Of a DNA stretch of 37,923 nucleotides, positions 1,934 to 15,935 are shown one piece after another (position 1 is the first letter of the stretch; the number at the start of each line of letters is the position of its first letter). A program made the position numbers and the translations under genes. The notes beneath the pieces are model-generated. The model was not told the DNA's origin. It worked only from the letters and a program-made list of their open reading frames with translations, and searched no databases. Where the stretch lies: the NCBI GenBank assembly GCA_001784695.1, contig MFRV01000002.1, positions 1-37,923 of the forward strand, written 5' to 3'. The stretch comes from Candidatus Moranbacteria bacterium RIFCSPHIGHO2_01_FULL_54_31 (GTDB lineage: Bacteria; Patescibacteriota; Minisyncoccia; Moranbacterales; UBA1568).

Positions 1934-3343
1934 ATGACCGAACCGCTCTCTCATTTCAAACACGTGCATATGATCGGCATCAAGGGTGCCGGTATGACGG
2001 CGCTGGCCGGACTCCTGACGAAACAGGGCGCTCTCGTGACCGGTTCCGATATCGGGGAGGTATTCTTTACCGATCGCATCTTAGAGGACCTCAAGATAAA
2101 ATGTGTGGAGCGTTTCGATCCGCAGAATATTCCGGCCGCTACCCAAGCAATCATCTATTCGACCGCCTATTCTCAGGAGGCGAATCCCGAGCTAGCGGCA
2201 GCGCTTGCGAGCGGTCTGCCGGTATGGAGCTATCCTGAGGCGCTCGGGATGCTGACGCGCGAGAAGCTGACACTCGCCGTGTGCGGAACGCACGGCAAGA
2301 CGACCACGAGCGCGCTCCTCGCGGAGACGCTCAAGTTCACCGGTCTCGACCCGTCGGCGATCGTGGGGAGCCGCATCATGAATTGGGACGGCAATGCGCT
2401 CTCCGGCAGCGGCGAGTATCTCGTCTTGGAAGCGGACGAATATCAGAACAAGCTGGCCGCCTACGCCCCGTTCGCCGTCATCCTGACGAGCGTCGATTGG
2501 GATCACCCGGATTTTTTCCCTGACAAAGAAAGCTATGAGCGGGCATTCGCCGATTTCGTGGAGCGCATCCCGCGTCACGGCGTGCTCGTCTACTGCAGCG
2601 ATTCGGCGCGCGTTGCCAGGATAGCGGAGCAGGCTATGTGCCGGAAGATTTCCTACGGATTGCTTGCGGGTGCGGATTTCCATATCCATGATTATGTTCC
2701 CGTGAAAATGGGTTTCGTCGGCGAGGCAGATATCATCAAACAGAGCTTCGCTGTCACGCATGACGGACAGGAACTCGGCACGTTTAAACTGAAACTTGCA
2801 GGGGAACACAACGCCGCGAACGCTACGGCTGTCTTGGCGCTCGCTCTGTATCTGAAGCAGGATCTCGCGCGCATCCGTACGGCGTTCGAGAAGTTCTCCG
2901 GCACCGAACGGCGTTTCGAGTACATCGGCGAACGCTACGGAGCGCTTTTCTATGACGATTATGCGCATCATCCGGAGGAGATCCGCGTGACGCTCAAGGC
3001 CTTCCGCGAGCTCTATCCCGACCGGCGCCTGCGCGTCATTTTCCATCCGCATACGTTCACGCGCACCAAGGCACTGCTCACCGATTTCGCGCAGAGTTTC
3101 GAGACGGCTGATGAGGTGGCTGTCCTCGATATCTACGGCAGCGCCCGCGAAGTTCAGGGCGGCGTATCATCGGAGGACCTGGTCCAGCTCATCAACCGTT
3201 TTTTCCCAGGGAAAGCCGAATATGCGCCGTCCCAAGAGGAGCTTATCGGCCGTCTGGAAGAGACAATGGGGCGTCAAGATGTTATCATTACGCTCGGAGC
3301 CGGCAATGTCTGGGAGATCGCTCATCGTCTGGCGAAGAGATGA
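1934..3343 (+). CDS. murC: UDP-N-acetylmuramate--L-alanine ligase
   Basis: GIKGAGM, GTHGKTTT, EADEY, DWDHPD, DDYAHHPEE, FHPHTFTRT motifs. Confidence 0.96.
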   Translation: MTEPLSHFKHVHMIGIKGAGMTALAGLLTKQGALVTGSDIGEVFFTDRILEDLKIKCVERFDPQNIPAATQAIIYSTAYSQEANPELAAALASGLPVWSYPEALGMLTREKLTLAVCGTHGKTTTSALLAETLKFTGLDPSAIVGSRIMNWDGNALSGSGEYLVLEADEYQNKLAAYAPFAVILTSVDWDHPDFFPDKESYERAFADFVERIPRHGVLVYCSDSARVARIAEQAMCRKISYGLLAGADFHIHDYVPVKMGFVGEADIIKQSFAVTHDGQELGTFKLKLAGEHNAANATAVLALALYLKQDLARIRTAFEKFSGTERRFEYIGERYGALFYDDYAHHPEEIRVTLKAFRELYPDRRLRVIFHPHTFTRTKALLTDFAQSFETADEVAVLDIYGSAREVQGGVSSEDLVQLINRFFPGKAEYAPSQEELIGRLEETMGRQDVIITLGAGNVWEIAHRLAKR

Positions 3344-3346
3344 AGC

Positions 3347-3470
3347 GAATCAGGAGTAGCGGATCCCTGCCCGGCAGGCGGGAGGAATTATGAATATGTC
3401 TTCGACCGTTTGATTGGCGCATCATTTTTTTACTCTTGATTCCGGATTCATAATTCATATATTCCGCTGC
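3347..3470. repeat. Inverted heptamer-type spacer with a nested GC-rich palindrome
   Basis: AATCAGGAGTA pairs with TACTCTTGATT; GAATTATGAAT with ATTCATAATTC; GTAGCGGA with TCCGCTGC; CCCTGCCCGGCAGGCGGG at 3365-3382. Confidence 0.6.
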
Positions 3471-5646: not shown

Positions 5647-5667
5647 TCTTCCTCAATGATTTCCGGG

Positions 5668-5821
5668 TATCACATCCTTGAGAGCAACCTTCCAGAGAGA
5701 TGTTCCTTTGTCCCAGCGGACAAACTCACTGCGTGAAAGTCTCGCAATCCGCCTCAGAAGGCGGAACCATGCTTGCTCAACTTTCAAGCCTCTCTGGAAG
5801 ATTCTCTCTGCAGATGTGATA
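5668..5821 (+). repeat. Structured ~150-nt repeat element, copy A
   Basis: P1 AACCTTCCAGAGAG/CTCTCTGGAAGATT; P2 TTTGTCC-CAGC-GGACAAA; P3 TGAAAGT..GCAA/TTGC..ACTTTCA; P4 CCGCCT-CAGA-AGGCGG; bulge AACCATGC; outer stem TATCACATC/GATGTGATA. Confidence 0.85.
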
Positions 5822-5961
5822 TGAAACATCCTCTTTGACGGGTGCTTTTTTGTTTGCTATCCTTAAATGGTTATTGGCTTGAAAAAGGGATGTTTTGTGT
5901 TTTCTTTATCTCTTTTGTTTCTGTCAAGATGCTAAATTCAATATTCTAGATTCTATTCCTT

Positions 5962-10035: not shown

Positions 10036-10109
10036 GGGCCTGTAGTCTAGTGGTAAAACAGTGCATTCGCATTGCACAGCCGGCGGTTCGATTCCGCCCA
10101 GGTCCACCA
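10036..10109 (+). tRNA. tRNA-Ala(CGC)
   Basis: Acceptor GGGCCTG/CAGGTCC with G3:U70, anticodon arm GTGCA-TTCGCAT-TGCAC, T-loop TTCGATT, encoded CCA. Confidence 0.96.
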
Positions 10110-14647: not shown

Positions 14648-15196
14648 ATGCAACCATTTGAAGGAATGCCGAATAATCAAACGGAAGCCCAGGGACTCTT
14701 TGCTGAAGATCAGCAGGATCGCGAGAATGGTCTCGACAAATCTGATCCCGCGCTCTTCGCCGAAAGAGAGAAAGCTCGTTATCAAAAAGCGCAAGAAATG
14801 TTTGCTCAGTACGAGCAAAATCCTCAATCTTTGTCTGCACAAGATGTGTTTCATCTGGCTTTTTTATTCCAGCATGGGCAGATACCAGAAGATTATAACA
14901 AGGCGAATATATTAGCCCTTGATGCAGAGAATCGCGGGGTTGAAGACGCAAAGTGGCTCTCGGCTGCTGCGGAGGATCGCTATCTCGTTTCCCTGGGGAA
15001 ATCGCAGAAATGGGGAACGCAATTCGTCCGAACTGAAAAGGGATGGCAATATGCTGCTCCTCTCGAGGATGAGGCGGTTTCCGGAATTACTGACGAGATG
15101 AGACAAGACAAGAACGTCCCTGCCAGGAATAGCCAGCTCCAAAAGATTGCGGAGATATACCCTGAGCCTTTGAGTGGCTTGGATGATGAAAAGTAA
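14648..15196 (+). CDS. Hypothetical protein with a DRYL...Q.WGTQF motif (DUF6624-like)
   Basis: AFLFQHG, WLSAAAEDRYLVSLGKSQKWGTQF; more AT-rich codons than its neighbours. Confidence 0.75.
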   Translation: MQPFEGMPNNQTEAQGLFAEDQQDRENGLDKSDPALFAEREKARYQKAQEMFAQYEQNPQSLSAQDVFHLAFLFQHGQIPEDYNKANILALDAENRGVEDAKWLSAAAEDRYLVSLGKSQKWGTQFVRTEKGWQYAAPLEDEAVSGITDEMRQDKNVPARNSQLQKIAEIYPEPLSGLDDEK

Positions 15197-15226
15197 AACA
15201 CCCTGACAGAACGTGCAGGGTATTTT
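15195..15226. terminator. Intrinsic terminator-like hairpin
   Basis: AAAACACCCTG...CAGGGTATTTT. Confidence 0.55.
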
Positions 15227-15252
15227 CTTGAGAATAAAAAGAGGTTTTATCG

Positions 15253-15403
15253 AAGCCTCCCTACCGCAAGAATCTTCCCGGGAGTCAGTCGTTTGCCCCA
15301 GCCGGCAAACTCCTTTATGAACTTTTTTCGATCCGTCGAAACGACGGCACCGTGCTCGAAAAAACTTCAACTCTCCCGGGAAGATTCTTGCGGCAGGAGG
15401 TTT
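15253..15403 (+). repeat. Structured ~150-nt repeat element, copy B
   Basis: P1 CCGCAAGAATCTTCCCGGGAG/CTCCCGGGAAGATTCTTGCGG; P2 TTTGCC-CCAGCC-GGCAAA; P3 TGAACTTTTTTCGA/TCGAAAAAACTTCA; P4 CCGTCG-AAA-CGACGG; bulge CACCGTGC. Confidence 0.88.
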
Positions 15404-15430
15404 TCCTTTTGTGACATCGTGTGAAAAAGG

Positions 15431-15583
15431 CGAAAACCGCCCTCCATCAAAGGTTCCGGGAACTTGAAATTTTTTTGAGCACGGTTCCTGATTCTGATCA
15501 GGATCAAAAAAATTTCATGAGCGAAATCTCGGCTGGGAGATTTCGTGGGTCCCGGAAGCTTTCGGATGGAGGAGCAGTTTTCG
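15431..15583 (-). repeat. Structured ~150-nt repeat element, copy D (inverted)
   Basis: Minus strand: TTCCGGGA/TCCCGGAA; CGAAATCTC-CCAGCC-GAGATTTCG; TGAAATTTTTTTGA/TCAAAAAAATTTCA; CCTGAT-CAGA-ATCAGG; bulge AACCGTGC; outer CCTCCATC/GATGGAGG. Confidence 0.88.
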
Positions 15584-15595
15584 GAAATAATAGAG

Positions 15596-15622
15596 AAAAA
15601 ACACCCGCACGGGGTGTTTTTT
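15596..15622 (-). terminator. rpmA terminator (bidirectional type)
   Basis: AAAAAACACCC-GCACG-GGGTGTTTTTT. Confidence 0.75.
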
Positions 15623-15635
15623 GATTGGGAAGCGG

Positions 15636-15935
15636 TTATTTCTTGGCTTTGGCGGCTTTTTGCGGGATGACGTGGACGAACATCCGCTGTGCCAGCTTGC
15701 CGGTGAAATCCTTGATCTTCTTGGTCTGGAACTCGACGGTGCCTGAGACGAGAGCGAACAGGGTGTCATCCGCGCCGCGCTTGACGTTTCTGCCAGGGTG
15801 GAATTTGGTCCCGCGCTGACGGATGATGATATTGCTGACCGCGACCGCTTGCCCGCCGAAAATCTTGACGCCGAGACGCTTGGAAATGGAATCACGGCCG
15901 TAGGAAGTTGATCCGCCTGCTTTTCTGGTTGCCAT
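15636..15935 (-). CDS. rpmA: 50S ribosomal protein L27
   Basis: [28 protein letters not shown]...[13 protein letters not shown]...GADDTLFAL. Confidence 0.97.

Follow-up and report, generated by a model that had tools for sequence, protein, structure and literature searches.

Organization of the region between the 182-aa gene and rpmA

The window analysed in this study is the whole stretch of 37,923 nucleotides of contig MFRV01000002.1 from Candidatus Moranbacteria bacterium RIFCSPHIGHO2_01_FULL_54_31 (hereafter G000). Within it, an open reading frame of 182 aa and the ribosomal protein gene rpmA face each other, and two copies of a structured repeat, designated B and D, lie between them in inverted orientation. 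The copies were matched with two covariance models: R1 was built from the four copies in the window, and R2 was built from the 13 copies in the genome. The model strand is the one that had been read in the first-pass annotation of this DNA, which was made from the sequence alone. The locus comprises the following features.

14648-15196, + strand: upstream gene, an open reading frame of 182 aa with pyrG before it
15195-15232, + strand: terminator-like hairpin and U-rich tail of gene 14648 (-10.9 kcal/mol, z -2.3)
15248-15408, + strand (model strand; better-folding strand -): copy B (R2, 159.3 bits, E about 1e-46 to 9e-46)
15409-15426, no strand: spacer of the doublet, with the core TGTGACATCGTGTGA, also present in the doublets of the relative G004
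15427-15585, - strand (model strand; better-folding strand +): copy D (R1, 136.3 bits)
15596-15622, - strand: intrinsic terminator of rpmA, reported by the consensus scan (-13.1 kcal/mol, z -5.2, U6 tail)
15636-15935, - strand: rpmA, ribosomal protein L27 (Pfam Ribosomal_L27, E 1.4e-32)

The first-pass annotation had described B (+) and D (-) as inverted elements lying 27 nt apart. The covariance matches fall at that place, with a gap of 18-20 nt between the model ends and approximately 27 nt between the outermost base pairs. Copy D is also matched by R2 (15429-15585, - strand, 106.5 bits, E about 1e-30 to 2e-29), and the two copies therefore fit a common model, as had been supposed. When folded alone, each copy forms a long helix with two inner hairpins (-81.6 kcal/mol and z -9.4 for B; -75.9 kcal/mol and z -9.3 for D), and none of 200 shuffles folded as well as B or D. 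The identity between the two is 67% (119 of 177 aligned columns), in agreement with the view that their stems differ and that the pair is not a recent inverted duplication. The spacer by itself folds no better than shuffles.

The pair had also been placed between two terminators. That of rpmA is clear. Gene 14648 is followed by a hairpin (about 15195-15226, then AUUUUCUU) that the consensus terminator scan did not report because its loop is larger than the limit of the scan; this hairpin is plausibly a terminator, weaker than that of rpmA. T-rich tails lie beyond the model-strand 3' ends of B and D. The 182-aa gene matched no Pfam family.

Elsewhere in the window, A-T-rich repeats based on the words ATTCATAATTCAT and GAATTATGAA (687-782 and 3436-3458) form a family of direct repeats as well as an inverted pair of 32 nt (78% complementary). 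Similar words also occur between pyrG and rpmA in G004 and another relative, G008.

A family of branched repeats with a covarying fold

Copies B and D belong to a family that has 13 copies in the 724,422-base, 36-contig genome of G000, as found with R1; five weaker echoes were detected on the opposite strand at the places of the G000 copies. The two other copies in the window are as follows.

5662-5822, + strand: copy A (R1, 141.4 bits), 15 nt past the stop codon of a raiA/hpf-like gene and before secA
31736/31747-31895, + strand: copy C (R2, 158.6 bits), between dnaB and recR, both on the - strand

The neighbours were assigned by Pfam as Ribosomal_S30AE and SecA for copy A and as DnaB and RecR for copy C. 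Copies B and D had each been said to stand in the same orientation to the upstream gene as copy A does to raiA; this is correct for A, B, and D, whereas the model strand of copy C is antisense to both dnaB and recR.

The unit is 150-180 nt in length, with 130-185 nt between the outermost pairs, and is built as a long closing helix capped by a conserved three-way junction. The closing helix, P1 (25-35 bp), varies in sequence between subfamilies. P2 is a 7-bp hairpin whose loop is conserved, and P3 is a long helix interrupted by a conserved bulge and capped by an apical hairpin. Two conserved single-stranded motifs can be read on the better-folding strand: approximately CGCUGGR in a hairpin loop and approximately GCAYGGUU in a bulge. 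An extra hairpin is located within the bulge in two G000 copies and in the D copy of the relative G064. Subfamilies have different termini but a common, conserved interior junction, and the copies showed no conserved terminal inverted repeat. Copy B is 91-95% identical to copies E and F of G000.

The fold covaries. In a 51-copy alignment from many genomes, which was fitted to the model, the paired cells amounted to 92.9%, compared with 69.5% in shuffles. Double changes occurred in 41 of 42 pairs of this same model-fitted alignment, a level reached by none of 500 shuffles, and slid partners gave at most 56%. Independent MAFFT alignments of 13 and 47 copies showed compensatory change in 33 of 42 and 32 of 34 pairs, respectively. 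Exact DNA patterns caught too few of the diverged copies (24 of 77 loci and 13 of 100 loci).

Rfam gave no relevant match, either at the gathering threshold or at E up to 10, and the best of nine sub-threshold matches in 15150-15700 scored 22 bits against a threshold of 40. The sole Rfam match in the window is a tRNA gene at 10036-10106. In the literature (listings and abstracts, without supplements), we found nothing linking Patescibacteria or the Candidate Phyla Radiation with such repeats.

A different long inverted repeat of approximately 200 nt lies by copy F (G000:C23, L006 ~1680-1877). Its arms begin with TTTCACAACAATATTC, and it may be a member of a second repeat family. A 250-nt stretch by copy F folds at -96.8 kcal/mol.

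Distribution across genomes and occupancy of orthologous loci

Matches were present in 30 of the 36 genomes examined from the same genus, with 0-21 per genome (some opposite-strand echoes included); six of the 36 had none. Within the same order, 11 of 21 genomes of the same family carried matches, as did 1 of 19 and 1 of 20 genomes in two other families, and the remaining 90 sampled had none. A sample of the phylum outside the order yielded four carriers among 150 genomes, with 1, 3, 5, and 8 matches, and the fold in these was alike.

We compared the rpmA locus in 30 genomes of the genus. Throughout these loci, pyrG, rpmA, and the next two genes largely retain their synteny. The pair is present only in G000 and G064, each of which also has the 182-aa gene there, while one B-type unit stands alone in G005. 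The other 27 loci have a short spacer, which in the seven inspected contains one short hairpin with a T-run. A homolog of the 182-aa gene lies between pyrG and rpmA in three of the 30 loci (G000, G064, and G024), which marks it as an accessory gene inserted at the variable place where the doublet also lies. The patchy occupancy of the locus indicates that the elements are insertions or at least lineage-specific. Since G000 and G064 carry the pair at a common locus, the divergence of B from D is older than the split of these two genomes, whose L27 proteins are about 82% identical.

Occupancy varies from locus to locus: elements were found at rpmA in 3 of 30 genomes, upstream of groES in 4 of 30, and within 1.5 kb of dnaJ in 12 of 30. 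The dnaJ copies lie at three kinds of position, and a copy is located approximately 30 nt upstream of dnaJ in G000, G064, G022, and G004. Copy M of G000 lies between the ATP synthase beta gene and the gene that follows it, 12 nt from each, and in G034 and G019 copies also adjoin the ATP synthase beta gene. In five groups of positionally orthologous copies, 47 pair positions carry double changes, while the wobble intermediates number 8 and 6. Compensatory change at such shared positions suggests that the fold is under selection in place, that quasi-palindromes are corrected arm to arm, or that copies are replaced by other copies.

Contigs from two sequencing runs contain the B-D pair with its unique flanks, and no contig with an empty-site joint at the element was seen in four runs. 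Logan contigs break inside the elements. A 151-nt contig corresponds to 15349-15498 of the window and runs from the end of B through the spacer into the start of D, with 11 differences (approximately 93% identity), which points to a related doublet in another habitat. It comes from a soil library labelled RNA-Seq, whose RNA status is a guess, and it is no evidence of transcription.

The doublet as a copied unit

The B-D doublet occurs at three loci: between gene 14648 and rpmA, and at two sites in G004, on contigs C7 and C9. Including its spacer, the G000 pair is 92.6% identical to the G004:C7 pair over 338 nt and 85.1% identical to the G004:C9 pair over 328 nt. The spacer core TGTGACATCGTGTGA is identical in G004:C7 and is reverse-complemented with one change in G004:C9. 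The flanks of the two G004 doublets are syntenic with G000:C9 (~21.2 kb) and G000:C18 (~9.2 kb), where the counterpart sites are empty and only 10-60 nt long; the rpmA locus of G004 is without an element. By contrast, the G064 pair, which is positionally orthologous to that of G000, is only 74.3% identical to it. As the protein distance from G000 to G004 is about equal to that from G000 to G064, the common ancestor of the G000 and G004:C7 doublets is younger than that of the species. Judging from these sequences, B, spacer, and D appear to move as a unit in a transposition-like spread.

D-type copies were seen only inside doublets (4 of 4). B-type copies also occur singly, as E and F in G000 and as one copy in G005, and no D remnants were found beside E and F. 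The G004:C9 doublet lies between co-directional genes; a site between convergent terminators is therefore not required. The filled and empty sites (G004 versus G000 and G005 versus G004) are too diverged for exact ends, and no target duplication was readable.

Eight doublets were found in seven genomes, the further ones being in G035, G138, G069, and G016; all have one relative orientation, and their gaps span 0-74 nt. BLAST shows no similarity between the B-D pair and the pairs of G035 and G138, indicating that doublets arose more than once. No close tandem or opposite-orientation pairs were seen among the matches listed, and single units are far commoner than doublets. The expectation that pairing exceeds chance was borne out: 37 genomes of the genus yielded four close convergent pairs, where chance would give 0.26-0.52 (Poisson P 0.0002-0.002), although these four are non-independent because three of them are of the same B-D lineage or type.

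Partial extra arms accompany two of the doublets. At G004:C7 (L085 ~2880-2905 and ~3290-3310), a D-type 5' arm precedes B and a reversed B-type arm follows D, and at the G138 doublet (L095 ~1430-1500), a 5' arm is duplicated in tandem. The extra arms hint that doublets grow or rearrange by template switching.

Strand preference, orientation and local skew

The reverse complement of the model strand is more stable than the model strand in 46 of 47 copies, with a mean difference of 11 kcal/mol, and 210 G-U pairs form on the reverse complement versus 80 on the model strand in these 47 copies. The complement is also more stable in all eight further copies, giving 54 of 55 overall, and likewise with DNA parameters. 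In the 47-copy alignment, wobble pairs number 149 on the complement versus 35, or 69 versus 34 when three recurrent pairs are left out; the structure used for this count was predicted on the complement strand, which favours that strand. Single changes in the orthologous groups show no strand asymmetry (8 versus 6), and the strand call thus rests on whole-element folding and the recurrent wobble positions. On these grounds, we consider it fairly likely that the structured strand is the complement of the model strand, i.e., not the strand read in the first pass. In that case, the active strand would be - for B and + for D. The pair had been called tail-to-tail; it is indeed inverted, but it may be head-to-head. 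If the strand call is true, any transcript reading through from either gene would encounter one unit on its active strand.

Among copies in co-directional contexts, 25-26 have the model strand in the sense orientation and 10 have it antisense (P 0.011). These counts are based on crude longest-ORF calls with doublet members included, and the figure of 26 was obtained after the neighbour of copy E was re-read as groES. The fixed orientation to the upstream gene that had been proposed is thus only a bias across the family. Convergent contexts number 16-17, and divergent contexts number two. Within the elements, the model strand is rich in C (the GC skew averages -0.17 and is negative in 39 of 41), yet in 38 of 52 single copies it coincides with the strand that is locally G-rich. 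Skew is confounded with gene direction, and the sole discriminating case, copy C, sides with the skew against its genes. The U-tract is inconsistent across the family, with copies C, F, G, H, and J having no T-rich tail.

At approximately 22-27 kb on G000:C34, the GC skew flips from positive to negative, and this may be a replication terminus or origin; the other contigs checked are single-signed, one window of C24 apart. The same contig (L003:1458-1484) has an inverted repeat, TTAGCACTC-N9-GAGTGCTTA, between copy E and a 91-aa GroES-like gene, which we take to fit the consensus of the CIRCE heat-shock operator. A looser CIRCE-like repeat is present upstream of copy G, and copy G lies 34 nt before dnaJ.

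Search for a mobilizing enzyme

Y1_Tnp was found in 13 of 41 genomes of the genus, without relation to copy number. No Y1_Tnp or RAYT was found in G000, which is 92% complete, and Y1_Tnp likewise gave no match in G316, G213, and G065, three genomes with a listed completeness of 100% that have 8, 5, and 8 matches to the repeat, respectively. The weak RAYT-like ORFs of G004, G006, and G022 do not adjoin listed copies. Among five high-copy genomes, the TnpB domain, IS110, and DDE_Tnp_1 were each found in none (0/5), while RVT was present in one, rve in two, and resolvase in four.

We also looked for an autonomous parent element at two clusters of copies and rejected both candidates. Copies H and G (G000:C9) flank dnaJ and a probably spurious ORF, without a transposase, and the neighbours of three copies on G022:C3 are nrdD, nrdG, a helicase gene, dedA, and uvrB. 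Among the flanking genes, those for ABC ATPases, GT4 glycosyltransferases, and ATP synthase beta recur; all neighbours checked are housekeeping or ordinary genes with no common function. An origin of the B type by insertion into an existing terminator loop was rejected as well, as the terminator of G005 is intact beside the element and the distal helix travels with the unit. The attC sites of integrons lie after genes and are recognized by their shape on the bottom strand. An attC-like nature was rejected by eye: the copies are dispersed, have mixed orientation, and show no apparent core-site motifs.

Comparison with known repeat families

REPINs are described as inverted REP doublets that are mobilized by RAYT tyrosine transposases (Bertels and Rainey 2011; PMC3116915, PMC3337134). 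The REP unit is an imperfect palindrome of approximately 20-40 nt with a conserved terminal tetranucleotide, GTAG or CGTC (see also PMC3733652). The present repeats resemble REPINs in being extragenic, multi-copy, and hairpin-folding, in varying in copy number between relatives, and in that two non-identical units, inverted and separated by a short spacer, can replicate as one. They differ in having branched units of 150-180 nt in place of simple palindromes of 20-40 nt, and in their diverse termini, among which no conserved terminal tetranucleotide was seen. Further differences from these descriptions are that no RAYT was found in G000 or several complete carriers, and that single units far outnumber doublets. 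Given the unit type and the RAYT results, the family is a variant of the dispersed structured-repeat kind and not a member of the REPINs. The likeness to BIMEs and REPINs drawn in the first-pass annotation therefore stands in part: it is strengthened by the recurrence of the doublet as a unit in G004, whereas no RAYT was found in these genomes and the units are larger and branched.

The BIMEs of enterobacteria are mosaics of alternating inverted REP types between genes, with IHF and gyrase as binding proteins. The present doublets share with them two unit types (B and D), the inverted order, a conserved linker, and a position at gene 3' ends, and the partial extra arms at the G004:C7 and G138 doublets resemble mosaic growth. 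The differences lie in unit size and architecture, and no longer arrays were seen here. Correia elements and certain other MITE-like repeats have no known transposase. In MITEs, which are non-autonomous derivatives of insertion sequences, the terminal inverted repeats shared with the parent element are conserved and the interior is variable. Like Correia and similar elements of about 100-160 nt, the present repeats are intergenic, their ends pair into a long helix, and co-transcribed copies likely affect the neighbouring transcripts. Unlike MITEs, they have a conserved interior junction, and it is the distal helix that varies between subfamilies.

Discussion

We propose that the family is probably a REPIN/BIME-like, dispersed structured repeat of ultrasmall bacteria, which is non-coding and tolerated at gene 3' ends. 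Both the single unit and the whole inverted doublet B-spacer-D would spread to new intergenic sites in a transposition-like manner, by a structure-specific factor acting on one strand. Copies would persist where the harm is small, i.e., after stop codons, between convergent genes, and rarely between divergent ones. The doublet in the window would have landed, or been retained, in the dead space between two convergent terminators, and its two long hairpins may serve at most as a back-up block or as 3'-end protection for read-through from either side. Several findings stand against a mobile repeat. No mobilizing enzyme was found among the families searched, no conserved terminal inverted repeat was seen, and no target duplication was readable at the diverged filled and empty sites. 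Some copies are kept inside operons (ATP synthase beta in three genomes), 12 of 30 dnaJ neighbourhoods have one, and four sequencing runs showed no contig without the element. The maintenance of the helices through 47 double changes at shared positions speaks against simple junk DNA. An unlikely extension of this proposal is that the three-way junction is the recognition module of a new kind of mobile or domesticated element, the G-rich strand of which would be read by a factor other than RAYT, TnpB, IS110, or DDE_Tnp_1. The doublet, presenting the active strand on both DNA strands, would then be either a two-way transcription or replication signal kept by the host or the transposition-competent form.

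The 47 compensated pair positions in the five groups of positionally orthologous copies would also be expected of a cis-acting RNA or DNA structure selected by the host, such as a 3'-end or intercistronic stabilizer, an RNase III-type processing site, or a transcription insulator. The doublet would then be a two-directional version for either convergent gene, and a mobile origin is compatible with this. We regard such a function as possible, if on the unlikely side. The motifs of the loop and the bulge persist in distantly related lineages of the phylum, a copy lies 12 nt from the ATP synthase beta gene in G000 and others are beside this gene in G034 and G019, dnaJ loci are occupied more often than rpmA loci (12/30 versus 3/30), and T-rich tails follow the model-strand 3' ends of B and D. 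However, most orthologous loci are empty (27 of 30 for rpmA and 26 of 30 for groES), 6 of 36 genomes of the genus have no match, and operon contexts show both orientations (~26 versus 10). Moreover, the better-folding strand is mostly the one absent from the neighbouring mRNA, the neighbours have no common function, and there is no consistent U-tract family-wide.

The excess of double Watson-Crick changes over wobble intermediates (47 against 8 and 6) is also what arm-to-arm correction would give. It thus fits a single-stranded-DNA element, the G-rich strand of which folds when unwound and is recognized when DNA is replicated, repaired, or taken up, perhaps as a signal for priming or recombination; the helices would then be kept by template-switch correction and not by selection. 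This very unlikely reading agrees with the greater stability of the complement in 54 of 55 copies with DNA as with RNA parameters, with the observation that 38 of 52 single copies nevertheless have their C-rich model strand on the side that is locally G-rich, and with copy C, which tracks skew rather than genes. It is weakened by the confounding of skew in the 3-kb flanks with gene direction, which leaves one discriminating case, and by the better-folding strand being mostly the leading-strand template, the least exposed in single-stranded form under the usual reading of GC skew; nor is there a known candidate protein. That the pair is an inverted repeat formed by chance, or an artefact of assembly at a contig repeat, is extremely improbable. 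Logan contigs do break within the elements, as they do at repeats, but the pair with unique flanks is present in the contigs of two runs and in G064, the E-values of the model reach 1e-46, and 0 of 200 shuffles fold as well.

Genomes below 1 Mb are thought to be stripped of selfish DNA. In the 0.72-Mb genome of G000, the 13 copies of this repeat amount to approximately 2 kb (0.3%), and as many as about 20 matches occur in relatives. Even at orthologous sites, paired changes preserve the fold, and the transposase families searched are not consistently present. These repeats break assemblies and can be mistaken for gene-specific leaders or riboswitches, and they provide markers with which strains of uncultured lineages can be typed. 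Should the repeat be mobile, its mechanism may be new; if it is kept by the host, it would represent a widespread, unannotated regulatory or structural signal.
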